Part shown: positions 1 through 19,204 of the stretch, piece by piece
Layout of the letters: each line of letters starts with the position of its first letter
How positions within the stretch are numbered: position 1 is the first letter of the stretch
NCBI GenBank assembly: GCA_963726085.1
Contig: CAVSAR010000011.1
Coordinates: 74,298 to 138,297 of the forward strand
Direction: 5' to 3'
Length of the DNA: 64,000 nt
Origin: an uncultured Pseudomonadota bacterium
GTDB lineage: Bacteria; Pseudomonadota; Gammaproteobacteria; Steroidobacterales; Steroidobacteraceae
Translations under genes and position numbers: made by a program
The notes under the pieces: generated by a model
What the model saw: the letters and a program-made list of their open reading frames with translations, nothing else
Database searches by the model: none
What the model was told of the DNA's origin: nothing

Positions 1-289
1 TCGGCCTCTCGCATACCTCGATCATCGCCGGCACTAGTGTGCGATTGCGATCAGCCAATGTGGCTTCGGCGCGTACCCAGCGTGAGACTACCGATTTCTT
101 CGACCACAATACGACCACCGCCTTTGCTTCGCGCAGCGCACCCTCTGTGACTTCATCATAGGCTTCACCCGATCGTAAAGCGGCATCCCACCAGACCGTA
201 AGGCCCTCCCGTTCAAAGGCCTCGGCAAACCGGCGCGCCACAGCTTGGTCTTCCCGGTTATAGGAAAGAAAGATTTCGGGCTGCGTCAT
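1..289 (-). CDS. TIR domain protein. Only the N-terminal ~96 codons are in the window; the gene continues beyond position 1.
   Basis: Reverse translation from the ATG at 289 gives MTQPEIFLSYNREDQAVARRFAEAFEREGLTVWWDAALRSGEAYDEVTEGALREAKAVVVLWSKKSVVSRWVRAEATLADRNRTLVPAMIE, a TIR_2-type domain with the same motifs as the three downstream paralogues. There is an ATGA start/stop overlap with the next gene (stop of 286..2076). Confidence 0.7.
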   Translation of the reverse strand, partial: MTQPEIFLSYNREDQAVARRFAEAFEREGLTVWWDAALRSGEAYDEVTEGALREAKAVVVLWSKKSVVSRWVRAEATLADRNRTLVPAMIEVCERP

Positions 290-2076
290 GTACCGCGACT
301 CTCGGCCGATTCAAGTTGGGTGCGCGCGGTCGTCAGCATGGTCACGAACCGCGGATAACTTCGCATGGAATCAAAGTCGTTGTCCTTGTCGACCCATGCC
401 AACCATCCCGAATTTACCTTGCTGAACACGCCTTCCAGCAGGTCGCAGGCGGCTTCGGCGTCGTTCATACGCGCCATACCACAGGAAAGATTATAGAGAA
501 GGCGAACATTGTCGGGATCAAAGAGTACAGCACGACGCGCCCACTCCCTCGCACGATCCACCTCGCCAAGTTGCGCCAAAGCAGGGACCATGAAGCCCAG
601 GGCTCCCCCGTGATCTGGCTCCACCTCTAGCAATTTCTCACAGTGAGACACAAGTATGCGCGCGGCGGCATCGGCTTTCTGTTTGTCCCCGAGCCCGGCA
701 TAAGCCTGGACAATCATCCCAGCGGGCCGATAGGCAACAGGATCCAGGGTCATTGCGATTTCAAAGTGGCGGATGGCGTCCGGGTATTTTTGTCCGGCGA
801 TATCCAGATATCCCGCACACAACTGCGCCTCAAAGGAATTTGGATTCATTCGCAGTGCCGTCTCTATATACGAATGGCCAGCCACCAGATCCATGCCGGC
901 GCCGCGGCCCCGTGCCTCCGCCAGTGCGGCATATCCCTCAGCCAGGTTGGGGTCGAGCGCAATCGCCTTTTCGGCCGCAAGGACCGCCCGATCCAGCGAG
1001 GAACCGCTCACACCCCGCTGGGCCATTTCGCTCTCCGCGAAAGACAGTTGCGCCCACGCCTGGGCGCAGCTGGCATCCAGCTCCACAATGCGATTGCAGA
1101 TTCTCGCGATCAATGGCTGCATGCGTTCGCTGCCGGTACGACTGAACTGCCGCGCCAGCAGGAACAGCTCGTAGGCCTCGGAACTGTTGGTGGTGCGTTG
1201 GGCGATAGCCTTCCGTTCGGCTGGCGCAAGCTTCACCTTCAGCGCGGCGACGATAGCCTGGGAAATCTCCTCCTGGATGGCAAAGATGTCGTCAAGCGTG
1301 CGATCGAACCGGTCGGCCCAGATCTGCGCGTCGGTGGTGACCTCCACCAGCTGCGCGGTAATGCGAACCCGCGACCCGCTCTTGCGAATGCTGCCTTCCA
1401 GGATGTGCGAGACGTGCTGTTCACGCCCGATCTGTGCCGCCGCGATTGTCCTGCCCTTTAACGAAAATGCTGCGTTTCGCGACACGACCGACAGCGCGGA
1501 CACACGCCCCAGGTCTGTAATGATGTCCTCCGTGACGCCGTCGCTGAAATACTCCTGCTCCGGGTCGCCACTCATGTTTACAAACGGCAACACCAATATC
1601 GCGGGACGCACTGATGCACCCTCGTACGGGGCCCTTGATGCCGGATGCGTAATGGCTGCCAGAGGCGACGGTGTAAGCACGGATCGCGCGGCAATGCGCC
1701 GCTTCACATCGGCAACCAGCCCCATCCAGACCCGGTCCTTAGGTGAACCATCCCAATGCATGAGTTCCGCGGATTGCGTCAGCTCGAACATGATGGGCCG
1801 GTCGCAGGTCTCGATCATCACCGGCACCAGTGTCTTGTTGCGATCCGCCAGCGTGGCTTCGGCCCGCACCCAGCGCGAGGCAACAGAGGTCTTTGACCAC
1901 AGCACCACTACGGCCTTGGCTTCACGCAGCGCCTTCTCGGTTACTTCGTCGTAGGCCTCGCCCGAGCGCAGGGTTTCGTCCCACCACACACCAACACCCT
2001 CGCGCTCGAAACCCTCGGCAAATCGTCGCGCGATGACCTGATCCTCACGGCTATATGAAAGAAAGACGTCCGTCAT
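286..2076 (-). CDS. TIR domain protein with a TolB-N/CadC-like sensor module and TPR-like repeats. No TM helix detected.
   Basis: I take the start as the internal Met of ORF 286..2226 (MTDVFLSYSREDQ..., cat at 2074-2076). TIR motifs are VWWDETL, VVVLWSKTSVASRWVRAEAT. They are followed by ILVLPFVNMSGDPEQEYFSDGVTEDII and a TPR-like Ala/Leu-rich C-terminal region. There is no hydrophobic segment between the TIR and sensor modules. Confidence 0.75.
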   Translation of the reverse strand: MTDVFLSYSREDQVIARRFAEGFEREGVGVWWDETLRSGEAYDEVTEKALREAKAVVVLWSKTSVASRWVRAEATLADRNKTLVPVMIETCDRPIMFELTQSAELMHWDGSPKDRVWMGLVADVKRRIAARSVLTPSPLAAITHPASRAPYEGASVRPAILVLPFVNMSGDPEQEYFSDGVTEDIITDLGRVSALSVVSRNAAFSLKGRTIAAAQIGREQHVSHILEGSIRKSGSRVRITAQLVEVTTDAQIWADRFDRTLDDIFAIQEEISQAIVAALKVKLAPAERKAIAQRTTNSSEAYELFLLARQFSRTGSERMQPLIARICNRIVELDASCAQAWAQLSFAESEMAQRGVSGSSLDRAVLAAEKAIALDPNLAEGYAALAEARGRGAGMDLVAGHSYIETALRMNPNSFEAQLCAGYLDIAGQKYPDAIRHFEIAMTLDPVAYRPAGMIVQAYAGLGDKQKADAAARILVSHCEKLLEVEPDHGGALGFMVPALAQLGEVDRAREWARRAVLFDPDNVRLLYNLSCGMARMNDAEAACDLLEGVFSKVNSGWLAWVDKDNDFDSMRSYPRFVTMLTTARTQLESAESRGT

Positions 2077-2095
2077 GACACTGCGCTTGCCCCGA

Positions 2096-4114
2096 TCATT
2101 TGCATTCGAAATCTTCCTTGCCAACTGGTCTGCAGAAGTCACCCCAGTTGCCGGCGGCGCGCCAGTAGGCGGCGACACCAATGTCTTGCAGTAGTTGCTT
2201 GAATCCAGGTTCACCACGTAAATCACGCATTACTGGCCGCCATAGTATGAAGCCCCAGATTTCGAAGCTGTAACCCTTGTGGCTCATGGCCTCGAACGTC
2301 TGCAAAGCAAGCTTGTGATCCCCAAGGTAGGTCGCCCACTGGGCAATACTGGACATGGTGTAGATATTGGCGGTATCCCGCGACTCATATTGCTGGTGCA
2401 GATTGCGCAGGGCCACAGCAGGCTCGTCCAGCAAGGGCTCGCCGGCGACGCTGGATACATCTGGCCCCGCTTCCCTAACTGCGACGAGCGCAGCCTTAAG
2501 CTTCGCTTCATTGCGGCTTGCCATGGCGCGCGTTACGGCAGTACCCAGCAGTGCGGGGGTGCGTCCACCGGGAAGCTGCAATAATTGGCGCATTTCTGCA
2601 TCGGCGCGCTCCACTTCCCCCGTGAGCTCGTATGCCATCAGCAAGTTGGTGCGCGCAAAGATGTCCAGCGGGTCATCCTTCTTCACTTTCTCAAGCACCG
2701 TGACGGCCTCTTTGGCCCGTCCCACGCCCTCCAGGAACTGGCCGTGGCGAAACCGTGCGCGCACCCCCAGCCCCCCGGTCAGTGCCAGGGCCTCATTCAG
2801 CAGCCGCTCCATGCCGATGAGATCGCCCTCGCGAGCCGCGCGATAGGACAAGGCGAAACTGGCCTCGGGGGATTTCGGCGACAGCGCCACAACCCGGTCG
2901 ATCGCCCCGTTGAGCTGGCGCTCGTATGGCGGGAGGGACTGCGGATCGTTGGGTGTAGCGCGGATGTACGCATCCACCAGCCACAGCCATGCCTGGACAT
3001 AGCCCGGATCGAGCGATACAGCGCGCTCCAGGTGCGGCGCCGCGGCGCGCATAGATGCCGTGTCGTTCGAATTGAGCAGCGCCCTGCCGGCAAGAAATTC
3101 GTCGTATGCCGCCACATTTTTCGTGCCGCCACCCCTGGGCGCGCCCATGCGCACCTGCAGTTCCTGGGCCACGGCTTTGGCGATCTCTTCCTGGATGGCA
3201 AAGATATCGTCAAGCGATCGCTCGTAGGTCTCGGACCAAACATGTGACCCGTCCGCAGTATTGATCAGCTGCGCCGTAATCTTGACCCGCTTGCCGGATT
3301 TGCGGACGCTTCCTTCCAGCAGGTGGTTGACGCCGAGCACTTCGCCGATATGCCGTAGGTCCTCGTTCTTTCCCTTGAACGCGAACGATGAAGTACGGCC
3401 AATCACGCGCAGGTCAGGTACCTGTGCCAGCTGGTTGAGCAGCTCCTCCGACAGGCCATCGGAAAAATACTCTTGTTCCGGGTCGGAGGACATGTTGACA
3501 AAGGGCAGGACGGCGATCGACGCCGGCACCGCGGCGGTCGAACTAGCGGGAGTGGACGACGCGACCAATGTACCTTTGGGCGCCAGATGCTGGCGCAGCA
3601 TCCATAGCCCGGCACCCGCAATCAGCAATACGCCGATGCCAATCGCCATCACCGCGCGATTGATCCGGCGCTTGCGATCCGCGGGGATTGCAGGCTGCGT
3701 CGAACGCCCCATTTCGGGATCGCCCTTTTGCACCAGTCGCCGTACGCTTGCCAGGTACGCCTGCCAGTCCTTGTCATTGGCGTCACCAGACCAGTTCGAA
3801 AGGTCCGCGGTCTGCTTTAGTTCGAACATGATCGGCCGTTTGCACGCCTCGATCATCGCTGGCACCAGCGTGCCGCTGCGATCTGCCTGGGTTGCCTCGG
3901 CCCGCACCCAACGCGACGCCACTGACTTCCTTGACCACAGGACGACCACAGCCCGGGCTTCTTCAAGGGCCTTTTCGGTTACTTCGTCATAGTCTTCGCC
4001 AGCATTGAGCGTCTGATCCCACCAGACCGTGAAACCCGCACGTTCAAAGCCCTCGGCAAAGCGTCGTGCAATCGCCTGATCGTCACGGCTATAGGAGAGA
4101 AAGATATCGGGCAT
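2096..4114 (-). CDS. TIR domain single-pass membrane protein: TIR, one TM helix, TolB-N/CadC-like module, TPR-like repeats.
   Basis: Start MPDIFLSYSRDDQ (cat 4112-4114; the annotated ORF begins 70 codons upstream without support). TIR motifs are present. The TM candidate is AVMAIGIGVLLIAGAGLWML. After it come IAVLPFVNMSSDPEQEYFSDGLSEELLNQL and TPR-like repeats. The C-terminus is NWGDFCRPVGKEDFECK. It lies 19 nt downstream of the stop of the previous paralogue. Confidence 0.75.
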   Translation of the reverse strand: MPDIFLSYSRDDQAIARRFAEGFERAGFTVWWDQTLNAGEDYDEVTEKALEEARAVVVLWSRKSVASRWVRAEATQADRSGTLVPAMIEACKRPIMFELKQTADLSNWSGDANDKDWQAYLASVRRLVQKGDPEMGRSTQPAIPADRKRRINRAVMAIGIGVLLIAGAGLWMLRQHLAPKGTLVASSTPASSTAAVPASIAVLPFVNMSSDPEQEYFSDGLSEELLNQLAQVPDLRVIGRTSSFAFKGKNEDLRHIGEVLGVNHLLEGSVRKSGKRVKITAQLINTADGSHVWSETYERSLDDIFAIQEEIAKAVAQELQVRMGAPRGGGTKNVAAYDEFLAGRALLNSNDTASMRAAAPHLERAVSLDPGYVQAWLWLVDAYIRATPNDPQSLPPYERQLNGAIDRVVALSPKSPEASFALSYRAAREGDLIGMERLLNEALALTGGLGVRARFRHGQFLEGVGRAKEAVTVLEKVKKDDPLDIFARTNLLMAYELTGEVERADAEMRQLLQLPGGRTPALLGTAVTRAMASRNEAKLKAALVAVREAGPDVSSVAGEPLLDEPAVALRNLHQQYESRDTANIYTMSSIAQWATYLGDHKLALQTFEAMSHKGYSFEIWGFILWRPVMRDLRGEPGFKQLLQDIGVAAYWRAAGNWGDFCRPVGKEDFECK

Positions 4115-4148
4115 TCTTGAGTCCCTGTTCGGCGGCCGCGCCGAGTGG

Positions 4149-5576
4149 CTAATCCTCGCCGTTTGCGTAGAGTTTGACCACTTCGTACAGGAACCTGCGA
4201 CCGTCCAGCAGCGATTTGACCCGGATGCGTTCATCCAGGCCATGGGCATGCGAACCTTCGGGGTCTGCAAACATGCCCGACAGTCCATAAGTCGGGATTC
4301 CGCCCGCGTCCAGGTACCTGCCATCGGTGGCGCCCACCGACATCGTGGGTATCAGGGGAACGCCTGGCCAGATCTTGGCAGCCACGGCCTGCGCCGGACC
4401 GAGGATGGCGCTTGTCATGCGGGGCGCCTGAGACTGCATGGCAGGTTCTCCGGTCGCGGCCACAGTAATCTTTTCATCGGCGAGCACGTCGCGGATTTCC
4501 CGCTGCACATCCGCGACCGAAACGCCTGGAAGGATGCGACAGTTGACGATAGCGCGTACATGCTGCGGCAGGGCATTGTCCGCATGGCCGCCTTCAATCT
4601 GGGTCACCACGCAGGTTGTGCGCAAGGCGGCGTTCCAGGCGGGGTTGACGGCCCAAAGCCTTTGCACGGCTGGCTCGTCCCGCGGATTGGCCAGCACGGC
4701 GCGCATGTCCTTGGCGATTTGCGGCGCGACCGACTTGCTCATCGCCTCGAAATAGGCGCGCGTGGTCGGATTGAAGGAGACAGTAAAGTCATGCGCGCCC
4801 ATGCGCACCAGCCCGGCACTGAGGCGCACGATCGGATTACTGTGCGTTGGCCGCGCGCTGTGCCCGCCGCCATCGGTTGCCTCCAATGCGAAATCCTGGA
4901 ATCCCTTCTCACCTGCCTGGATCTGCAAGGTAACTGGCCTCCCGTCCTTGTCGAGCTCGCCACCGGCGCCCTCATTGAGTGCGAAGGAGGCGCTGAGCAC
5001 CTGCGGCTGCGCCGCCACCAGCCATTTGACCGTATTGAAGATATCGGGCGTTTCTTCGCCGCAGGTCAGTGCCAACTTGATATCGCGTCGCGGCCTGAAT
5101 CCCTCCTTGCGATACCGAACCAGGTTATCCGTAAACACCGAGGCCATCGCCTTGTCGTCGGCTGCGCCGCGCGCATAGAAGTATCCGCCCTCCTCGACAA
5201 GCTTGAAGGGATCCCGTTGCCAGTCCTTGCGCTTTGCCTCAACCACATCAATATGCGCCAGCAGCAGGATCGGCTTGGCCTTCGGCTCGCGGCCACGCAG
5301 GACGGCAACCAGCGCGCCATCATTTGGGCGGTCTGGCGGTGCGAGGATCTGCATGTCGCCCGCGGGAATCCCCGCTGCCAGCAGGTGTGTGCGCATGGCT
5401 TCGGCCGCCTTCGTGCAGCTACCCACCGAACGCGTCGTGTTGAGTTCCACCAGCTCCTTGTAAAGCGCGCGAAATTCAACCTCCCCTGGGTCGGCCGCCT
5501 GTGACGTGGATGTGCCAGCCACGCTGGCTATCAGAATAGAGACTGCGCCGCGCGCTAGGGCCTTCTTCAGTGACAC
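4149..5576 (-). CDS. M20 family metallopeptidase (dipeptidase/carboxypeptidase-like), secreted.
   Basis: 475 aa with a signal peptide MSLKKALARGAVSILIASVAGTSTSQA and M20 hallmarks (LLLAHIDVV, GAADDK, CGEE). It is embedded between TIR paralogues. Its start overlaps the stop of 5567..7618 by 10 nt. Confidence 0.8.
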   Translation of the reverse strand: MSLKKALARGAVSILIASVAGTSTSQAADPGEVEFRALYKELVELNTTRSVGSCTKAAEAMRTHLLAAGIPAGDMQILAPPDRPNDGALVAVLRGREPKAKPILLLAHIDVVEAKRKDWQRDPFKLVEEGGYFYARGAADDKAMASVFTDNLVRYRKEGFRPRRDIKLALTCGEETPDIFNTVKWLVAAQPQVLSASFALNEGAGGELDKDGRPVTLQIQAGEKGFQDFALEATDGGGHSARPTHSNPIVRLSAGLVRMGAHDFTVSFNPTTRAYFEAMSKSVAPQIAKDMRAVLANPRDEPAVQRLWAVNPAWNAALRTTCVVTQIEGGHADNALPQHVRAIVNCRILPGVSVADVQREIRDVLADEKITVAATGEPAMQSQAPRMTSAILGPAQAVAAKIWPGVPLIPTMSVGATDGRYLDAGGIPTYGLSGMFADPEGSHAHGLDERIRVKSLLDGRRFLYEVVKLYANGED

Positions 5577-7618
5577 TCAAAGTCCTCCGCCCCAACGGGC
5601 TTGCAGTAGTCGCCCCAGTTCGAGGAAGCACGGAAATAGTCAGCCAGTCCGACATCCCGCACGAGATCCTTGAATCGCGCGTCGGAGCGAAGGTCGGACT
5701 TAAGCGGGAGCCAGAGCGCATTTGGCGAATGGAAATCGACCGACACGCGTCTCATGGCGATCAGTGCAAGGTCCTTGTCGTCGAACCTGTCGGCAAACAT
5801 CACGATGACGGACATGCGAACCCGATCCTGGTTCGCTGGATCATCAATGCCTTGCCTGATTGCAGCGCGGGCCTGCTCCCGATTTTCAAACTTCCCGGCC
5901 AGGTCGTGTGCAACCGGCATCGGTATCACCTCCTCGCTAAGCAATCTGTGGAACTGGGCCCTGATGGCCGCCGGCTCCGCATTCTTGCGCGCCAGGATTC
6001 GCATTAACGCGAAAATATTCGATTGCTGATGACTCCCGAGCAGCGTTTGGCTGCGCTCATACTCGGCTTGCGCCTCGCTGCTCCTGCCGACCATGTCCAG
6101 TTGCGCCTGCAGGGCACCGGATACATAGAGTGAGAGCGGATCCGCATCACGCGCCTGCTCCTCGAAGCGCACCAATTCCCTGTTCCTGCCCAGGGTCCCG
6201 AGAATGATGCCGTAGCTTTCACCCGCTTCGTTGCTACTGGATGGCAATGCACCGGCCTTCAAAGCACCGGCCATAGCCTCTTCGGCCTGCGCCCAGTTAT
6301 GCTGACCTACAAACTGGTTGACCCGCAAAATCTGTGCCCACCAGGCATTCGGAGCCAATGTCAAAACGCGCTCCGTCGCAGCGTTCGCCTCGCCGCGCAA
6401 AGCTGCGGACTCACTCTCCGGGACGCCGATCAGCGACTCGCGCAGTGCATAGCTTAGCAATAACCAGGCGCGCGAGAACTGCGGATCAAGCGCAACGCAT
6501 TCACGCAACTCCCGGACGGCATGCATGCCCGCCACCGGCCCGTTTTGGTGATAGATCTGGCGAGCGTGCAGATACTTATCATAGGCCTCCACATCCGTGG
6601 TTCCTCCCTGGACGCGAGGCAGATCCCCTACATCGAGCGTCACGCTCAATGCACGGGCTACATCCTTTGCGACTTCCTCCTGCACCGCGAAGACGCCGCT
6701 GAGTTCGCGATCGTAGGTTTGCGACCATAGGTGCCTGCCGTCCTTGGTACCGATCAGCTGCGTAGTAATTCGCAGATTCTTGCCGTCTTTGCGAACGCTA
6801 CCCTCGAGAATATTGTCCACATCCAGCGTCTTGCCGATCGCCCGAATGTCCTCGCCCTTTCCCTTGAACAGAAAGCTGGAGGTACGCGCGGTGACGCGTA
6901 GCGCCTTGATGTGCGCCAGCTGATTCAGGAGTTCCTCCGTCATACCATCCGAGAAGTAGTCCTGATCGTGCGCTGGTGACATATCGGCAAACGGGAGCAC
7001 CGCAAGCGTGATGTTGGTTTCCGGTTTTACCGCTGGGCTGCCTGCGAGTGCTTGCGTGGCGCCGGCAGCGGAAAATCCGGCAACCCCCTTGGGGCTGTAG
7101 TGGAACCAGATCAGGGCGGCGCCGGCAAGCACCAGCAGTGCCACGGGAATCGCGATCTTGAGCCCCATGCCCGCCCTAGGTCCCGCCATCGCCGTCCCCT
7201 TCGTCGGCGTGGTGGCAACCGGTTCACCTTTGTTCATGTGCCGGCGCAAATCGCCGACGAACGCGAGCCACGACCTGTCGTCCGGATCTCCTTTCCAGTG
7301 CGTCAGCTCCGCCGTGTGTTTGAGCTCGAACATGATCGGCCGGTCGCAGGATTCGATCATTGCCGGCACCAGCGTGCCGCTGCGATCCGCAGTGGTCGCT
7401 TCCGCCCGCACCCAGCGCGATTCAACGGACTTCTTTGACCAGAGCACGACCACTGCCTTGGCTTCGCGCAGGGCGCGCTCTGTCACCTGGTCGTAGTTCT
7501 CGCCCGAGCGCAGTGTTTGGTCCCACCAGACAGTGAATCCTTCGCGCTCGAATCCCTCGGCGAAGCGGCGCGCGGTCACCTGATCGTCCCGGCTATAAGA
7601 AAGGAAAATGTCGGTCAT
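5567..7618 (-). CDS. TIR domain single-pass membrane protein: TIR, one TM helix, TolB-N/CadC-like module, TPR-like repeats.
   Basis: 683 aa: MTDIFLSYSRDDQVTARRFAEGFEREGFTVWWDQTL...VVVLWSKKSVESRWVRAEAT. TM helix IAIPVALLVLAGAALIWF, then LAVLPFADMSPAHDQDYFSDGMTEELLNQL. The C-terminus NWGDYCKPVGAEDFECH parallels that of 2096..4114. Confidence 0.8.
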   Translation of the reverse strand: MTDIFLSYSRDDQVTARRFAEGFEREGFTVWWDQTLRSGENYDQVTERALREAKAVVVLWSKKSVESRWVRAEATTADRSGTLVPAMIESCDRPIMFELKHTAELTHWKGDPDDRSWLAFVGDLRRHMNKGEPVATTPTKGTAMAGPRAGMGLKIAIPVALLVLAGAALIWFHYSPKGVAGFSAAGATQALAGSPAVKPETNITLAVLPFADMSPAHDQDYFSDGMTEELLNQLAHIKALRVTARTSSFLFKGKGEDIRAIGKTLDVDNILEGSVRKDGKNLRITTQLIGTKDGRHLWSQTYDRELSGVFAVQEEVAKDVARALSVTLDVGDLPRVQGGTTDVEAYDKYLHARQIYHQNGPVAGMHAVRELRECVALDPQFSRAWLLLSYALRESLIGVPESESAALRGEANAATERVLTLAPNAWWAQILRVNQFVGQHNWAQAEEAMAGALKAGALPSSSNEAGESYGIILGTLGRNRELVRFEEQARDADPLSLYVSGALQAQLDMVGRSSEAQAEYERSQTLLGSHQQSNIFALMRILARKNAEPAAIRAQFHRLLSEEVIPMPVAHDLAGKFENREQARAAIRQGIDDPANQDRVRMSVIVMFADRFDDKDLALIAMRRVSVDFHSPNALWLPLKSDLRSDARFKDLVRDVGLADYFRASSNWGDYCKPVGAEDFECH

Positions 7619-7806
7619 TCACGGTTCCTGATGTGCTCGCCGGCAATTGGGTCAGGCCTCGCCAAGTGTAAGCGCTCCGCATCTGCACCGCCCGCCTCAA
7701 CTGGCGTATTGCCAAGAACACACGGGAGTTTGTCGGATCTCACCATGTGGGTGAGAAAACCAGGATGCGGAGCGGGTGGTAGCCGGGCTGACCCGACGCC
7801 CGCGGA

Positions 7807-8829
7807 CTAGGGCTTGCGCGCCATGACTAGCGAGTAATAGCCCCCGCCCGTACGCCAAGCCTCAATGTCGGCAAATCCGGCAGCCTCCAGAAACCCGCGC
7901 AGCTCTGGCAGGGTGTACTGCCTGCCCTTGGTACCCAGCAGCATCATCATCGAGAACGCGGCCGGCGCCAGTGGCCCACAGCCGTCATCGTCAATCAGCA
8001 TTTCGTGCAGCAGGATGCGCCCGCCGGCAGGCAGCGCCTCAAAGGACTTGCGCGCCAAAATGCGGCAGGTGGCGTCCGACCAGTCGTGAAAGATATTTGA
8101 GAAGAAGTGCGCGTCATGTCCGCGCGGCCAGTTCTCGGTGAACATGTTGACCGCTTGCGTTGATACCTGCGCCTGGACGCCAGCCGCCGCAATGTACTGG
8201 TCGGCTTCCACGCAGACCTGCGTGATCTCCATCACCGTGGCCCGCAGCTCGGGCCACGCTTTTGCCAGCCGGATCGGGAATATGCCCGATCCACCGCCCA
8301 CGTCCAGCAGCGACCGCACCTCGGAAAACAGCGGTTGCGCGGCAACACCCCGCGCAGCCGCCTGGCTGTGCGCATTCATGAAGGCCGTGATGAAATTGGC
8401 GAACTCCGGCGTCATCGCGCCACGTTCCCATTCATCCACGGAAGACAGTCCTCCCTGCGGGCGGCTGCCGGTGCGAAGTGTCGCAAGCATCTGCTTGTGC
8501 AGGAGCTCACGCTCGCGAAAGATGCCCAGCATGGGACCGTAATAGCCCTCTGCCTGCGGATGCATCCACATGCGGCTGGCGGCGGTCGCTCGCCAGCGGC
8601 CTTCGCGTCGCTCCACGAAACCCAGTGCCGCCAGAAGCCCCAGGTGAATCAGCAGCGCGCGCGCATCCACCTTGAGTTCGGTGGCCAATTCCGCGGTGGT
8701 CAGGGACCGCGATGAGATCGCCGTAAAAGTACCGACCTCATCAGCCACCGTGAGGACCGGCATCCGGTACTGCGACAGCCAGGTATCCCAGATGATCTTG
8801 TCGTCGCTGGTCGCGGGCAGTGCACTCAC
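7807..8829 (-). CDS. Class I SAM-dependent O-methyltransferase (family 2 OMT-like).
   Basis: 340 aa with an N-terminal dimerisation-like region and the SAM motif LLDVGGGSG. It lies 11 nt downstream of the MFS transporter gene. Confidence 0.75.
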   Translation of the reverse strand: MSALPATSDDKIIWDTWLSQYRMPVLTVADEVGTFTAISSRSLTTAELATELKVDARALLIHLGLLAALGFVERREGRWRATAASRMWMHPQAEGYYGPMLGIFRERELLHKQMLATLRTGSRPQGGLSSVDEWERGAMTPEFANFITAFMNAHSQAAARGVAAQPLFSEVRSLLDVGGGSGIFPIRLAKAWPELRATVMEITQVCVEADQYIAAAGVQAQVSTQAVNMFTENWPRGHDAHFFSNIFHDWSDATCRILARKSFEALPAGGRILLHEMLIDDDGCGPLAPAAFSMMMLLGTKGRQYTLPELRGFLEAAGFADIEAWRTGGGYYSLVMARKP

Positions 8830-8840
8830 TGTGATTTCCG

Positions 8841-10088
8841 TCAGGCCGTGCGCAGCTTGCGCGGTGCGGTTTCCTTGAGGAACAGCGCAACGATGAAGCC
8901 GAGCACCAGGCCACAGGCCGCGAAATACAGCGCGCCTTTCAGTCCATATTCGCCACCCGCGATCCTGCCAGCGATGATCGGGCTGATGCCGCCGCCGACG
9001 AATTCACCGGCGAAGATCACGAAGCCGGCCATGGAGGCCAGCATGCCGGGAGGCGCGGCTTCTGCGGCGACCGGACCTGCCAGGATCGCCAGTGCCGCAA
9101 AATTGAACATCGAGGCAAAGAACAGCAGGATCCACAGGACGGTCGTATCGTGTGGACCAGCCTGCGTAAAGAAGTACAGGAACGCCGCGGCCAGGATGTA
9201 GGAAGCCAGCGTGGACAGCTTGCGGCCGATGATGTCGGACAGCGCGGGCATCGCAAACTGGCCGATGCAGCCGCCAATACCCACCGCCGAGAACACGTTG
9301 CCGGCGGTCACCGGATCGAGCCCCAGGCCTGCACCAACTGGCGCGGTCAGGTAGGCCGTGAGCATCGCGGCGATCACGAAGATGCCACCCATGGCGCAGA
9401 TCAGCGTGAGCGGTGCGACCTTGGCGTTGCGATGCGCGAACATGCTGAGGAATGGCGCACCACCACTGCCGTGCCCCGTATCGGCACGCTTCAGCGGTTC
9501 CCGCACGACGAACCACATGATGATGGCCACGATCACGCCGGGCGCGCCGACGATCATGAACACGGAGTGCCAGCTGTGGCTGTTCAGCAGCCGCGTGGCA
9601 ATCAGTGGCGCCAGCGCCAGGCCGAACAGGGAAATCATGCACTGGAAGATGCCGTTGTTCATGCCGCGACGCGATGGCTTGGAGGCCTCCACCGCAACCG
9701 CGACCCCGGTCGAGGCCACCGGACCTTCGGCGACACCCATGATCACTCGGACCAGGACCAGGGCCGTGACGGAGCCGGCCAGGCCGCTGAATGCCGACAT
9801 CAGGGAGAACACCAGGATGGCAGGCACCAGCACCGCGCGGCGGCCGACTCTGTCCGCCAGATAACCCATTACGAACGCCGAGATTCCCCAGGCCATTCCC
9901 AGGTATCCCGCCAGTGTTCCTCCGTCCTGGGGAGTCAGGCCGAGATCCTTGCCCATCGTGGAGTTGGGCGACTGCAGGATGATCGGAAGCACGAACCTGT
10001 CGAGGCCCACCAGACCGAAGGTGATGCTCAGCAGCAGGATGATTTTCCACTCGTAACTGGTATCCCAGTTCTTTTCTTGTTGTGCCAC
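8841..10088 (-). CDS. MFS transporter.
   Basis: 415 aa, about 12 hydrophobic helices. Motifs GLDRFVLPIIL and ADRVGRRAVL are typical of MFS. Confidence 0.85.
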   Translation of the reverse strand: MAQQEKNWDTSYEWKIILLLSITFGLVGLDRFVLPIILQSPNSTMGKDLGLTPQDGGTLAGYLGMAWGISAFVMGYLADRVGRRAVLVPAILVFSLMSAFSGLAGSVTALVLVRVIMGVAEGPVASTGVAVAVEASKPSRRGMNNGIFQCMISLFGLALAPLIATRLLNSHSWHSVFMIVGAPGVIVAIIMWFVVREPLKRADTGHGSGGAPFLSMFAHRNAKVAPLTLICAMGGIFVIAAMLTAYLTAPVGAGLGLDPVTAGNVFSAVGIGGCIGQFAMPALSDIIGRKLSTLASYILAAAFLYFFTQAGPHDTTVLWILLFFASMFNFAALAILAGPVAAEAAPPGMLASMAGFVIFAGEFVGGGISPIIAGRIAGGEYGLKGALYFAACGLVLGFIVALFLKETAPRKLRTA

Positions 10089-10522
10089 GGCGCTCCCCCT
10101 TGATTGGATTTTATGGTGCGATTCGAGCCGGAACTATATCACTCCATTCAGCGCCAGACTTCGCCGGGGGTGTCTGTCATACCAGCCCGAAGTCTCGCGC
10201 AGCAGGTCCTAGCGCGACGCCCCCAGGTGCCCCGACTCGAAGACCACGTACCGCTAGCTATAGGGCGACCATCCAAGCAGTTCGCACAGGCGTTTGGAAC
10301 CTGAGTAGCGAATCGGCAGGTAAGAGCCGGAGCACGTCCCGCGCGCGCTAGCGCGCCCGGAAGATCGCCGGCATCGACAAGCGCAGCACGCTTCGTAACC
10401 TGCCGACGCGGCCCCTCTGCACATGGCCTGCGAATCCGCCCCGTTAGGCGGCGGTGCTCACTCTTCCCAGCCGGTGGGCGAGTTGTACGGTGTCGTGACG
10501 CCGATGCTTCGATCTCGTGGAT

Positions 10523-14436: not shown

Positions 14437-15945
14437 TCAGAAGGCCGGCAATGTCCGCACGGCCGGCGCCTTGAGTGCCGCCGCATCCTCCTTGACCAGC
14501 CTGCCGTCCGCGACCGCCTGGTCCACCGCGGCGTTGAAGCGCTTGATGTATTCGTTTCGGTCCTTGTAGAGCGCTTTGAGCCTGGGACCCTCGAAGCGCC
14601 GCATGGACCCGGTTATCTCGCACAGAGCACGGGAACCGGCATCGTTCTGCGCCGGCGTACTGCGACCTGAGTAAGTGGCCAGCGGCACGTCTATCTGCGG
14701 CAGCCGCCAGCCGCCCTGGACATTTCCCAGGCGGTCAAGCAATGGCTCGCCGCGCGAATCCGTCTCGATGCGCGGCACAGTGTCCATGGCCGCGCCAGTA
14801 ACCAGCAGGCGGTCGAATTGCTGCCAGATCGCGTTGAACGCCAGGCCGAGCGGAAAGTCGCTGCGCGGCTCCCGACAGGCGTCGTCAGCCGGAACCGCAA
14901 GGCCTGCGATCTGCAGGTCGACCGCGGCAGGTTGTCCGGCCGGATACGGGCCGGAGTACGCGGCGCCAGCGATTTCATACTGGTGGTACACGGCGCCGAG
15001 CTCGTCGCTGTCAGTGCGATGCTGTGCGGACGCACGGCGCAACTCCGTCTGCGTCAGCACCACCACCACCGGCGCGGTGCGTGGTGCCAGCGCACGTGGC
15101 TCCTCGGCTGCTGGCGCCGCAGTACAGGGGTTGAGGGGCATAAGCCCGGTTGCGGCGGCGCTGAGATAGCCGTCATAAATCGGCGCGCCATCGCCTAGCC
15201 GCAGGTTTGCGTGCAGTGCGTTGATGAAGGTGCCGATGTACGCACCGGCCTGGCCATATCCGGCCAGTATCACCCGGCGCGGGTTGTAATTGCGCAGTGG
15301 GTTCTCATGACTGGTACTGCGCAGCAGTGCACCGCTTTGCGCAATCAGGTCCCACACCAGGCCGCCATCACCCACGTCGGGGCCGGCCGCGGCCTTGCAA
15401 TCAGCAGGCGGATTGGCCATGTTCAATGGCTCATAGCGCAGCGAATCGAATTTTTCCAGCGTCGCGGCAGCGCGCGCGGATATCGTAATGCCCACCCAGG
15501 CGTCGCCACTGCGCAGGAACTGTTCGCTGGAAAGCCCCCACAGGGGAGCCGCGTCGTAGTTCTCCGGTGCGTCCAGAAGTTCCACGATCACGCGCCCACT
15601 GAAGCGCTTGGTGTCCAGCGGACGTCGCACCAGAAGGCGCGTGACGTAGGGCACTCGCGCCGCCCCTGCGGACGCTGCGGTGCGCACACCCGCGGGCGAC
15701 CACTCGTAGATACCGGCCAGGCCAGTGACCAGCAGCTCGTCCTCGGCATAGCCCTGGGCAGCCAAATCCACGGGCGCCAGGGCGCTGGCGGCAGCCAGGA
15801 ACGGACGGTTGGTTTCGCTGGCCGGGACCAGGGTGGCGCGCGGCGTCGACACCAGTTGCGCACCCATTACCCGCGCTGCCATTGCGGCCAGCAGCAGGCC
15901 GGTCGCAATCAATGGCAAACTCCGGTAATGCATGTGCGCCGTCAT
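14437..15945 (-). CDS. Hypothetical secreted protein, about 500 aa, possibly alpha/beta-hydrolase-like.
   Basis: Signal-like N-terminus LPLIATGLLLAAMAARVMGA. No catalytic motif is confidently recognised. Confidence 0.5.
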   Translation of the reverse strand: MTAHMHYRSLPLIATGLLLAAMAARVMGAQLVSTPRATLVPASETNRPFLAAASALAPVDLAAQGYAEDELLVTGLAGIYEWSPAGVRTAASAGAARVPYVTRLLVRRPLDTKRFSGRVIVELLDAPENYDAAPLWGLSSEQFLRSGDAWVGITISARAAATLEKFDSLRYEPLNMANPPADCKAAAGPDVGDGGLVWDLIAQSGALLRSTSHENPLRNYNPRRVILAGYGQAGAYIGTFINALHANLRLGDGAPIYDGYLSAAATGLMPLNPCTAAPAAEEPRALAPRTAPVVVVLTQTELRRASAQHRTDSDELGAVYHQYEIAGAAYSGPYPAGQPAAVDLQIAGLAVPADDACREPRSDFPLGLAFNAIWQQFDRLLVTGAAMDTVPRIETDSRGEPLLDRLGNVQGGWRLPQIDVPLATYSGRSTPAQNDAGSRALCEITGSMRRFEGPRLKALYKDRNEYIKRFNAAVDQAVADGRLVKEDAAALKAPAVRTLPAF

Positions 15946-16939: not shown

Positions 16940-19204
16940 ATGAACCAAACACCCCTGGCCTCCCGGCCCTATATTCCTGCGGTCACGCGCCTTCCGGAAA
17001 TGACGGTGCGTGCTGTCGTGGTCGGCACCATCCTCGGAATCATCTTCGGTGCGTCCTCCCTGTACCTGGTACTGAAGGTCGGGCTGACGGTCAGCGCCTC
17101 GATCCCCGTGGCGGTGATCTCCATCACGTTGTTTCGCATGTTGTCGAAGCTAAGGATCCGCGACGCCAGCATCCTGGAACACAACATCGTGCAGACCGCC
17201 GGCTCCGCCGGCGAGTCCATCGCCTTTGGCGTCGGCGTGACCATGCCGGCGATCCTGATCCTGGGCTTCGACCTGGAACTCACGCGCGTGGTGCTGGTGG
17301 CGGTTCTGGGTGGGCTGCTGGGCATCCTGATGATGATTCCGCTGCGCCGCGCGCTGATCGTCAACCAGCATGGCATCCTCAAATACCCGGAAGGCACGGC
17401 CTGCGCCGAGGTGCTCAAGGCAGGCGCCAATGCGGAATCGCGCGCGGCTGCGGATCCGCTGGCCCTTGATGCCCGGTCCGTCGGCATCAGCGCCCGCACC
17501 ATCTTCACCGGCTTTGGTATTGGCCTGGCCTACAAGGCGCTCAATGTCGCCTTCAAGGGCTGGCGAGACATGGCGGACATGGTGTTCGGGGCGCCTCTCA
17601 AGGGTGGTTCCCTCGCCGCGGAGATCTCGCCGGAACTGCTGGGTGTCGGTTACATCATCGGACCGCGCCTCGGGGGCTTGATGTTCGCGGGTGGCTTCCT
17701 GACCTACCTGGTGCTGATCCCGATGGTCCTGTTCTTTGGGTCCAAGGTTCCAGGCGTGCTCGCCCCGGGCACCATGCCCATCGCGGACATGTCGCCCGGC
17801 GACGTCCGCAATGCCTACATTCTCTATATCGGAGCCGGCGCCGTGGCTGCGGGCGGGATCATCAGCCTGGCACGCTCGCTGCCGCTGATCTTGAGCAGCA
17901 TTCGCCGCGGCATCAGCGATGTCTCCGCCTCGCGCAACGGCACGGCCAGCACCGATCGGCGCGACCAGGACCTGTCACTGAAGTTTGTCGGCATCGGCAC
18001 GCTGGTGCTACTGGCCGCCATCACGCTGTCCCCGTCACTGCACATGAATGTGCTCGGCGCCCTCCTGATCCTGATATTCGGCGCGCTGTTCGTGACTGTC
18101 TCCTCGCGGCTTACTGGCGAGATTGGCTCTACCTCTAACCCGATTTCCGGCATGACCATCGCCACGCTGATGCTCACCTGCCTGGTGTTTCTCATCGTCG
18201 GCTGGACCGGCGGCGCCTGGTATGTAACCGCGTTATCGGTGGGCGGCATCGTTTGCATCGCCTGTTCGAATGGCGGCACCACCTCGCAGGACCTCAAGAC
18301 CGGGTTCCTGATCGGCAACACGCCGCGCCTGCAACAGATATCCATCCTCATCGGCGCACTGGCCTCAGCGCTGCTGCTGGGGCCGATACTGCTGAAGCTC
18401 AACGACACGGCAAGCGTGTACATCCCGGTGGCCCAGGTCGCCCCGCAGGGGCTGAGCACGGACGTGTCGACGCTCGGCACCAAGCAGGAATCCATAAAGG
18501 GCGTGCAGGCCCATGAAGATTCGAAGGTCTACCACGTATGGCACAAGACCGGCATTGAAGGCGGGCCAGCGGGCAAGTACCTGGTGGATGACGCGGGGCA
18601 CGCGGTGTGGCTGGTGGATCCGGGCATCAACGGCGTGCATGACACGCGGCCGGACGGGACCCATGTGCGCAAGTTCGATGCGCCCAAGGCCACCCTGGTG
18701 TCCTACATCATCAAGGGCATTCTCGACCGCAAGCTGCCGTGGGACCTGATCCTGTTCGGCGCGATGATCGCGATTCTGATGGAAATATCCGGCGTGCCCT
18801 CGCTGGCATTCTCGGTGGGCGTGTACTTGCCGATCTCATCCACGACGCCAATCTTCATCGGCGGGCTGATTCGCTACCTCGTCGACCGGCACGCGCGACG
18901 CTCTCCGGAGGCTGCGGCCCTTTCCGAGGCCGAATTCACCGCGCAGTCGGATCGTGGACCGGGTGTGCTGTTCGCATCCGGGTACATCGCCGGCGGGGCG
19001 ATTGCCGGGATTGTGATCGCGTTCCTGGCAGGCGTGCTGGGAAACCAGGATGCAGCGCTGCAGCGCTGGTCCACCGAGCACAACCCCTTCTTCGAAGGAC
19101 CGCACTCGGACCTGCTGGCATCGCTGCCGTTTCTGCTGCTGGTAGTGCTGCTGTGGCTGGTCGCCAGGGGCAAGTGGCTGTCGGGCACCGGCAGTCGCGG
19201 CTAA
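16940..19204 (+). CDS. OPT family oligopeptide transporter.
   Basis: 754 aa from MNQTPLASRPYIP. It is polytopic, with OPT-like segments (GTILGIIFGASSLYLVLKVGL, NIVQTAGSAGE). Confidence 0.8.
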   Translation: MNQTPLASRPYIPAVTRLPEMTVRAVVVGTILGIIFGASSLYLVLKVGLTVSASIPVAVISITLFRMLSKLRIRDASILEHNIVQTAGSAGESIAFGVGVTMPAILILGFDLELTRVVLVAVLGGLLGILMMIPLRRALIVNQHGILKYPEGTACAEVLKAGANAESRAAADPLALDARSVGISARTIFTGFGIGLAYKALNVAFKGWRDMADMVFGAPLKGGSLAAEISPELLGVGYIIGPRLGGLMFAGGFLTYLVLIPMVLFFGSKVPGVLAPGTMPIADMSPGDVRNAYILYIGAGAVAAGGIISLARSLPLILSSIRRGISDVSASRNGTASTDRRDQDLSLKFVGIGTLVLLAAITLSPSLHMNVLGALLILIFGALFVTVSSRLTGEIGSTSNPISGMTIATLMLTCLVFLIVGWTGGAWYVTALSVGGIVCIACSNGGTTSQDLKTGFLIGNTPRLQQISILIGALASALLLGPILLKLNDTASVYIPVAQVAPQGLSTDVSTLGTKQESIKGVQAHEDSKVYHVWHKTGIEGGPAGKYLVDDAGHAVWLVDPGINGVHDTRPDGTHVRKFDAPKATLVSYIIKGILDRKLPWDLILFGAMIAILMEISGVPSLAFSVGVYLPISSTTPIFIGGLIRYLVDRHARRSPEAAALSEAEFTAQSDRGPGVLFASGYIAGGAIAGIVIAFLAGVLGNQDAALQRWSTEHNPFFEGPHSDLLASLPFLLLVVLLWLVARGKWLSGTGSRG

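Follow-up and report, generated by a model that had tools for sequence, protein, structure and literature searches.

A stretch of 64,000 nucleotides (nt) from an uncultured bacterium of the Steroidobacteraceae (contig CAVSAR010000011.1 of GenBank assembly GCA_963726085.1, positions 74,298 to 138,297; hereafter the window) begins, at positions 1-7618, with five co-oriented genes on the minus strand that follow one another with nearly no spacing, in the order D, M20-family peptidase, C, B, A. The 5' ends of A, B, C and D all encode a TIR domain and look alike at the DNA level. The question raised by this locus is whether these blocks are a repeat that recombines or the mark of a protein domain that is not free to change. 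A first-pass annotation, made from the letters alone, took the former view, describing near-identical blocks that would expose the locus to unequal crossover, to changes in copy number and to gene conversion, as would suit a rapidly diversifying receptor family. The four genes are old paralogues; their TIR blocks are conserved by purifying selection, share no long identical runs, and are not being homogenized at present. It is likely, in our judgment, that A to D are ancient, co-oriented TIR paralogues whose blocks are kept alike by constraint on the protein, and we include in this reading a function in which a sensor governs a TIR-borne signal.

The repeat itself is real. A blastn comparison of the region with itself gives six pairwise matches of 271-326 nt (E 3e-37 to 7e-77), which correspond to four copies, in register and in one orientation, of a block of ~270-325 nt (see the table); there is no fifth copy elsewhere in the 64-kb window. 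The block covers codons 1 to ~108 of each gene, which is the TIR core, and beyond it identity falls to background. All four genes pass the gathering threshold of 28 bits for Pfam TIR_2 (PF13676) with 76-81 bits, and the description of TIR-coding direct repeats in a tandem, receptor-like family is borne out. The copies are not, however, near-identical. By blastn they are 79.0% (B-D), 75.8% (C-D), 75.7% (B-C), 74.2% (A-B), 73.1% (A-C) and 71.7% (A-D) identical, and the pair from which 80-85% identity had been estimated by eye (1760-2076 against 7302-7618) is 78.9% identical without gaps. The longest exact runs shared between copies are 11-23 nt, and megablast, with its 28-nt word, finds only the trivial self-match; near-identity, taken as about 90% or more at the DNA level with exact runs well above ~25-30 nt, is absent. 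The 29-mer gagctcgaacatgatcggccggtcgcagg, quoted as present in both copies of that pair, occurs only at 7322; what the two copies have in common is the 10-mer ccggcaccag, at 1821 and 7363, the longer quoted stretch being single-copy.

Constraint on the protein accounts for most of the similarity. As a null we used 5,000 back-translations of the same protein pairs, codon-aligned, with codon usage drawn from the non-TIR parts of these genes and from three neighboring genes. The null gives 68-71% DNA identity, against 71-80% observed in the codon-aligned TIR blocks. On whole-block identity B-D shows the only clear excess (79.9% versus 71.2%, p<0.001), and B-C (p=0.0004) and C-D (p=0.008) stand slightly above the null by this measure, though not clearly so on codon choice. 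Where two copies have the same residue, the fraction at which they also use the same codon (the same-codon fraction) is 0.39-0.50 in five pairs, the null being 0.39; B-C, at 0.50, is marginal (p ~0.05). Nei-Gojobori estimates of synonymous divergence (dS) are 0.81 for B-D and 1.37 for B-C and, in the remaining four pairs, exceed 2 or are undefined, while nonsynonymous divergence (dN) between the blocks is 0.11-0.16 (dN/dS 0.05-0.15). Outside the TIR block, paralogue protein identity is 31-40% and DNA identity lies exactly at the null. In essence, the similarity does not clearly go beyond what the protein requires: identical runs are at most 23 nt and five pairs sit at the codon null, and B-D, which stands above it, is still within the range seen between genomes. 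We conclude that the blocks resemble one another because the TIR protein is under very strong purifying selection, and not because of recent duplication or homogenization. A DNA- or RNA-level element within the blocks was also considered; it was rejected because third-position identity (0.40-0.60 between copies) is, in most pairs, at the codon-usage null.

An empirical control, consisting of the TIR blocks of 116 family genes at 79 loci in other genomes, gives a similar answer. TIR pairs from different genomes have a mean DNA identity of 72% (95th percentile, 80%) and a same-codon fraction of 0.51. On a regression of nucleotide identity on amino acid (aa) identity, the window pairs fall at z = 0.2, 1.1 (B-D) and -0.7.

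Outside the TIR block, each gene has closer kin in other genomes than among its neighbors. Gene-body aa identity is 34-41% among the window paralogues and 62-96% with genes elsewhere: the best matches of B are in a Caulobacterales metagenome-assembled genome (MAG; 62%) and among metagenome proteins (86-89%), that of C is at locus L016 (74%), and D is 96% identical to protein P0001 and 71% to P0002. A scan of genome contigs returned nothing closer than 56% aa identity to D, and a metagenome scan with full-length A nothing closer than 69%, in genes that are mostly solitary. The four genes are ancient paralogues within one very large and uncharacterized family, which comprises more than 7,800 proteins at E <= 1e-20 under labels such as 'TolB-like protein', 'adenylate cyclase' and 'TIR domain-containing protein'. 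Between Alpha- and Gammaproteobacteria, the TIR parts of these proteins are 70-80% identical and the sensors 25-60%.

Copy number within the species could be compared with a single metagenome contig, L080, which is syntenic with the window (MFS, O-methyltransferase, D, M20 peptidase, C, and onward) at 94.7% DNA identity. Between these two strains dS in the TIR block is 0.07 for D and 0.17 for C, whereas paralogues are separated by 0.8 to >2; with orthologues closer to each other than paralogues are, there is no current concerted evolution in the window. Over the same pair of strains, ~95% identical in nucleotides, D has a dN/dS of 0.20 and C one of 0.13 (0.0-0.2 in the sensor modules), as compared with 0.14 for the M20 gene, 0.12 for the O-methyltransferase and 0.04 for the MFS gene. 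D and C are under ordinary purifying selection, much like the housekeeping-type genes beside them, which lends no support to the picture of a rapidly diversifying family. Nor is there support for the supposed proneness of the locus to unequal crossover and gene conversion, given a dS that is mostly saturated, the shortness of the exact runs, gene bodies that are closer to those of other genomes, and paralogue TIR identity at the between-genome level.

The third TIR gene of L080 (8777-10009) corresponds to window positions 2076-1890 as far as a junction near 8963, and then diverges. Over the first 186 nt of the TIR block it is 94% identical to B; past the stretch coding for VVVLWSK, identity drops to 78% with B and 81% with A, and the body, which is of the short type, has 69% aa identity with A and 68% with genes from other MAGs. 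Between the junction and the end of the contig there are 1.05-1.2 kb, and the junction is also downstream of a frameshift in C (near 8000), past which aa identity to the window C falls from 98% to 91%. The possibility that the gene is a simple product of unequal crossover between B and A was rejected, because full-length A matches its body at no more than 69% and the DNA past the junction, at 81% with A, is below the orthologue level. As a separate matter, dS varies about ninefold along the syntenic block (window 4152-10088 against L080 800-6733), from 0.45 in the O-methyltransferase through 0.23 in C, 0.19 in the MFS gene and 0.08 in D to 0.05 in the M20 gene, which suggests a mosaic of homologous exchange among strains that is unconnected with the TIR repeats.

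Elsewhere in the family there are signs of the kind of exchange that the window lacks. Of the 79 loci fetched, 25 have head-to-tail arrays of two to five family genes; these loci are from Steroidobacteraceae, Sphingomonadales, Hyphomonadaceae and Caulobacter. TIR blocks within an array are more alike than those of different genomes (82% versus 72% in nucleotides; same-codon fraction 0.645 versus 0.51), and the same-codon fraction is higher in the TIR block than in the rest of the gene (0.66 versus 0.47) in 36 of 40 within-array pairs (Wilcoxon p = 8e-10). Five of those 40 pairs, at L010, L021, L040, L059 and L070, have TIR blocks that are 90-95% identical, with 76-87% of codons the same and exact runs of up to 81 nt; the similar tracts stop at about codons 100-130, and the bodies are at background (43-52% DNA and 25-35% aa identity). 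To judge from these alignments, homogenization of the TIR block only bears the mark of gene conversion that was limited to this module. Paralogues that are more alike than orthologues, the hallmark of concerted evolution, are found at these five loci and not in the window. The content of arrays also differs among relatives: in L081 a second TIR gene comes immediately after a D-like one, L082 and L083 carry the M20 gene, a helix-turn-helix (HTH) gene, a DUF2975 gene and B followed by a non-TIR gene, and L016, whose MFS gene is 92% identical, has an orthologue of C only. The idea of copy-number change and gene conversion finds no support, in short, at the locus about which it was put forward and is supported at the level of the family in other genomes, with L080 ambiguous. 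At L048 we observed a pair of genes on opposite strands and 4.4 kb apart (10001-10375, plus; 14726-15100, minus) with TIR blocks 90% identical in DNA and 96% in aa and with unrelated bodies; homogenization, therefore, would not be limited to head-to-tail neighbors.

The proteins encoded by A to D share an architecture, with an N-terminal TIR_2 domain, an alpha/beta module resembling those of CadC and TolB-N, and TPR-like repeats. In B the repeats match TPR_END_plus (NCBIfam, 48.8 bits against a cut-off of 32), with weak matches to the NCBIfam CadC and TolB models; the maximum Kyte-Doolittle value over 19 residues is 0.95, too low for a transmembrane (TM) segment, and A likewise has none. Both are predicted to be soluble, B in the cytoplasm. 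C has one TM helix at residues 155-173 (about window 3596-3652; Kyte-Doolittle 2.31) and matches positions 218-417 of the CadC model (E 2.5e-8). An AlphaFold2 model of D, made from an alignment of 58 sequences (mean predicted local distance difference test score 84.5), consists of a TIR domain (1-130), a disordered linker, a TM helix (156-173 in the model and 152-170 by hydropathy; 152-173 is about window 7100-7165), an alpha/beta module (203-323), helical repeats (343-665) and a C-terminal hairpin. A Foldseek search of the Protein Data Bank (PDB) with this model found the periplasmic domain of CadC (3ly7-3lya, E ~1e-4, probability 1.0), and also the TolB N-terminal domain, GNA1162, FlgT and TPR superhelices; the NCBIfam matches to CadC and TolB over the same region are sub-threshold. 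In both C and D basic residues precede the TM helix, and a pair of Cys residues is conserved at the C terminus (661/671 in C; 672/682, within the hairpin, in D). Having a single TM helix, C and D should have their sensor parts facing the periplasm, and we infer a topology that keeps the TIR domain on the inner side of the membrane and puts the sensor on the outer side.

W69 and E73 are invariant in A to D and in the 58 homologues (the codon for this catalytic-type Glu in A lies at about 67-65), and they align, in a W-x3-E context on helix alphaC, with the W...E of the AbTIR chains 7uwg and 8g83. We take the aligned Glu to be the catalytic E208 of AbTir, and presumably E73 is the catalytic Glu here. 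In the TIR_2 fold and in these residues the window proteins resemble the bacterial TIR NADases AbTir, TirS and TcpB; they differ in being only ~20-25% identical to them and in having another architecture, and an NADase role for them is putative. The resemblance to receptors of the CadC/ToxR type lies in a cytoplasmic N-terminal output domain, a single TM helix (in C and D) and a periplasmic sensor of alpha/beta and helical parts, with matches to positions ~218-450 of the CadC model. Unlike CadC, these proteins use a TIR domain for output and not a winged helix, and no match to Trans_reg_C was found in A to D; they match the CadC model with 25.7-33 bits, where the cut-off is 400, their helical part is far longer, and A and B are without a TM helix. 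The corresponding neighborhood in L082 encodes a TIR_2-FGE-sulfatase fusion and a protein composed of Trans_reg_C (winged helix), FlgO/TolB_N and TPR (3343-5052 and 17335-19104). The latter protein adjoins the TIR array and has this sensor scaffold joined to a DNA-binding output where the window proteins have a TIR domain.

Many arrays in relatives are followed directly by an open reading frame (ORF) of ~676 aa, often overlapping the stop of the last TIR gene and 51-77% identical among loci. It is present at 18 of the 62 loci that could be evaluated, comprising 10 of 15 multi-copy and 8 of 47 single-copy loci, and it is a possible shared effector of the arrays. The product has four TM segments in two hairpins and an N-terminal domain of ~370 residues. 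At default thresholds it has no Pfam or PADLOC match; all 18 homologues nonetheless match NCBIfam SLATT_1 at ~518-665 (best E 8.7e-9) as well as SLATT_3 (~376-460) and Pfam DUF4231 (best E 5e-5), all of these matches being consistent but sub-threshold. A profile search against PDB sequences gave noise only (antibody light chains; a nucleoside 2-deoxyribosyltransferase at E 0.53), and a resemblance of the N-terminal domain to SLOG/LOG folds has behind it only stray, single sub-threshold matches (Nuc_deoxyrib_tr, E 0.057; DprA, E 0.094). TIR genes more distantly related to those of the window (61-62% over the TIR block) at L108 (651-3473), L111 (10013-11611), L117 (10001-12823) and L118 (4448-7270) are followed by distant relatives of this SLATT-like protein (25-29% aa identity), and these loci may be classical pairs of TIR and SLATT genes resembling type VII Thoeris.

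In type VII Thoeris a TIR protein and the SLATT effector ThsH have been shown experimentally to communicate by canonical cyclic ADP-ribose, and in type III several TIR proteins accompany a SLOG effector (preprint 10.64898/2025.12.03.692087). The family resembles Thoeris in the retention of the catalytic-type Glu, in having several TIR genes side by side, in the single SLATT membrane protein that follows the array in relatives, and in weak matches of the window proteins to ThsB and ThcB4 over the TIR domain. The differences are considerable. The window proteins carry CadC/TolB-like and TPR sensor parts of 450-550 residues, half of them span the membrane with the sensor predicted to lie outside the cytoplasm, the partner in relatives has two SLATT-like hairpins and a large N-terminal domain, and most solitary members of the family have no partner in cis. 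NCBIfam ThcB4 is matched with 23-32 bits against a cut-off of 220, which is well short of what would identify a Thoeris protein.

These features allow a mechanism to be proposed. Cues would be bound by the divergent part of each protein, made up of the CadC/TolB-like module and the TPR repeats; for C and D this would take place in the periplasm, for A and B in the cytoplasm, and binding would drive assembly of the near-invariant TIR domain. The assembled TIR would cleave NAD+ to yield a signal nucleotide, and the SLATT membrane protein that ends the array, where there is one, would be its reader, as in Thoeris. Across the family, on this reading, the TIR modules of adjacent paralogues are homogenized episodically by gene conversion and arrays gain and lose members, and the lineage of the window retains at most an old trace of conversion, between B and D. 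The extreme conservation of the TIR domain, and conversion limited to that module elsewhere, may both arise because every paralogue must make the same signal or co-assemble with the others. A more specific version, in which the array is a Thoeris-like, multi-sensor system whose diverse sensors, some of them periplasmic, feed one NAD+-cleaving TIR module and a shared SLATT effector, with the TIR domains kept interchangeable by selection and some conversion, is one we advance only tentatively.

Several observations weigh against the view of the locus as a set of ancient paralogues held alike by protein constraint and serving TIR signaling. B and D have the same codon at 0.62 of their identical residues, where the null expectation is 0.39 (p ~2e-4), and this excess, which B-C shares weakly, may reflect some shared history or an old conversion of the TIR module. 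The change of partner in L080, if real, would represent recent recombination inside the TIR block in the population; an assembly switch at the conserved block, between co-existing strains or paralogues, is plausible and explains the junction equally well. As to function, the window contains no SLATT partner or effector-like gene, the SLATT matches of the partner in relatives are below curated cut-offs (35 versus 41 bits), and matches to Thoeris models, including PADLOC ThsB (E 2.6e-6 to 1e-2), are to the TIR domain only.

The B-D excess and the L080 junction might also be taken to mean that the TIR blocks recombine now, and that unequal crossover, copy-number change and conversion are at work in a rapidly diversifying receptor family. 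Direct repeats in a single orientation would lend themselves to this; the junction, at nt ~187 of the TIR block in a contig ~95% identical in the flanks, is where a body appears to have been switched; and the differing array content at L016, L081, L082 and L083 would fit this reading, as would TIR-limited homogenization in other genomes. We nevertheless find this explanation improbable for the window. At 72-79% identity, with no common 28-nt word and no run above 23 nt, four of six pairs saturated at synonymous sites, and pairs no more alike than those of different genomes, the blocks do not have the appearance of sequences in exchange. Their divergence of 21-28% and the shortness of their exact runs would make them poor substrates for homologous recombination today: 23 nt does not exceed the minimal efficient processing segment that Shen and Huang reportedly described in 1986 for RecA-dependent recombination, and divergence above 20% reportedly, in work of Vulic and colleagues from 1997, cuts recombination by orders of magnitude. 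The order D, M20, C and 5' end of B is conserved in L080, the orthologue dN/dS (0.13-0.20) is like that of the neighboring genes, and the junction's position, close to a contig end and beyond a frameshift in C, makes a mixture of strains or a chimera plausible. Clusters of plant TNL/NLR genes, which are likewise tandem arrays of TIR-containing receptors, do evolve by duplication, unequal crossover and conversion; the window genes differ from them in being without NB-ARC or STAND domains, in showing no raised sensor dN/dS between strains, and in being far older paralogues.

A milder proposal is that concerted evolution is episodic and keeps the TIR domains compatible with one partner or signal, the last event here, between B and D, being old and mostly decayed. 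It draws on the higher similarity of TIR blocks within arrays than between genomes, on the 36 of 40 pairs in which the TIR block exceeds the remainder of the gene, and on a dS of 0.81 for B-D where the other pairs approach saturation. It also has a precedent in animals, since the tandem mammalian paralogues TLR1 and TLR6 owe the continued likeness of their TIR-containing region to gene conversion (PMC2077338). The TLR1/TLR6(/TLR10) cluster resembles this family in its tandem receptors with divergent sensors and, in other genomes of the bacterial family, in TIR-coding DNA that is kept alike; it differs from the window, where orthologues are closer than paralogues in the TIR block, where the TIR domain is N-terminal, so that the order is reversed, and where an operon takes the place of separate eukaryotic genes. 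B-D, however, lies within the between-genome range, and D has a higher same-codon fraction (0.70) with the unrelated MAG gene L009_2275 than it has with B, so a codon preference particular to the TIR block could explain the excess. B and D are, moreover, not adjacent, and a profile in 10-codon steps contains no discrete conversion tract. We consider such an event in this lineage possible but doubtful. That the array is merely a mis-assembled repeat, collapsed or expanded, can very nearly be dismissed, even though metagenome contigs of relatives show anomalies at or near TIR blocks, as in L080. The copies differ by 21-28% in the TIR block and by >50% elsewhere, so that assemblers would not confuse them; the exact D, B and A proteins are recorded on one 302-kb contig; D with M20 and the next gene, and the 3' end of B with A and the next gene, recur on short Logan contigs, a different one for each, from run ERR12037367, a run that may represent the same data; and L080 has D, M20 and C independently.

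The table collects the features of the locus, with examples from relatives. The ATG of A (289-287) overlaps the TGA of B as ATGA, the start of the M20 gene overlaps the stop of D by 10 nt, and the gaps between M20 and C and between C and B are 34 and 19 nt; this arrangement points to a single translationally coupled operon, for which the region upstream of D is a possible promoter region. A scan of positions 1-9000 for consensus promoters and terminators gave counts at the shuffle expectation and was uninformative on operon structure. The start codon of B is confirmed by an identical called protein, P0121. Full-length A is protein P0271, of 556 aa; it is identical to the A of the window over residues 1-96 and is located on the same 302,158-bp contig as P0121. 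On a short Logan contig the next gene overlaps the stop of A by 4 nt, so the operon extends past the edge of the window. The M20/M28-type peptidase has an N terminus that, judged by eye, resembles a signal peptide, and its gene occupies the equivalent position in L080 and also adjoins the B orthologue in L082 and L083; we speculate that the enzyme might act on a periplasmic ligand.

Table. Coordinates of genes and TIR blocks in the window, and of putatively homogenized TIR blocks and partner ORFs at loci in other genomes
Feature	Sequence	Position	Strand	Basis or remark
Gene A, 5' part (TIR block copy 1)	Window	1..289	minus	TIR_2 76.7 bits; 96 codons, then left edge of window
Gene B, 596 aa	Window	286..2076	minus	Pfam TIR_2 77.3 bits and TPR families
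TIR block copy 2, B codons 1-108	Window	1753..2076	minus	blastn
Gene C, 672 aa	Window	2096..4114	minus	Pfam TIR_2 81.3 bits, weak FlgO
TIR block copy 3, 5' end of C	Window	3791..4116	minus	blastn
M20-family peptidase, 475 aa, between D and C	Window	4149..5576	minus	Pfam Peptidase_M20 91.7 bits, M20_dimer 51.7 bits
Gene D, 683 aa	Window	5567..7618	minus	Pfam TIR_2 76.4 bits
TIR block copy 4, 5' end of D	Window	7295..7620	minus	blastn
Intergenic region upstream of D, 188 nt, only sizeable gap in the cluster	Window	7619..7806	minus	Gene spacing
TIR blocks of adjacent paralogues, putatively homogenized	L021	8295-8600 vs 10001-10306		
TIR blocks of adjacent paralogues, putatively homogenized	L010	10001 vs 11968		
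TIR blocks of adjacent paralogues, putatively homogenized	L059	11965 vs 13629		
TIR blocks of adjacent paralogues, putatively homogenized	L040	450 vs 2135		
TIR blocks of adjacent paralogues, putatively homogenized	L070	10001 vs 11659		
Partner ORF, ~676 aa	L082	11284-13314		
Partner ORF, ~676 aa	L016	12010-14043		
Partner ORF, ~676 aa	L003	12111-14210		
Partner ORF, ~676 aa	L009	6059-8065		
Partner ORF, ~676 aa	L010	19266-21404		
Partner ORF, ~676 aa	L021	12246-14315		

The repeats at this locus are, for the most part, ordinary: blocks coding for a conserved domain in old tandem paralogues look repetitive by eye, and the locus ought not to be marked as an unstable repeat or as a hazard for assembly. 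The gene family is of more interest than the repeats, for it joins a TIR domain to a CadC-like sensor in the topology of a receptor and forms arrays across Alpha- and Gammaproteobacteria, and the SLATT-domain protein to which it is linked in relatives is the kind of effector recently shown in type VII Thoeris. We regard a family that follows Thoeris-like logic with periplasm-facing sensors as a plausible variant of the known TIR signaling systems. If this is true, TIR-based immune or stress signaling in bacteria would be extended to sensors that face the periplasm, and the family would provide a bacterial parallel to the module-specific gene conversion of animal Toll-like receptor clusters.

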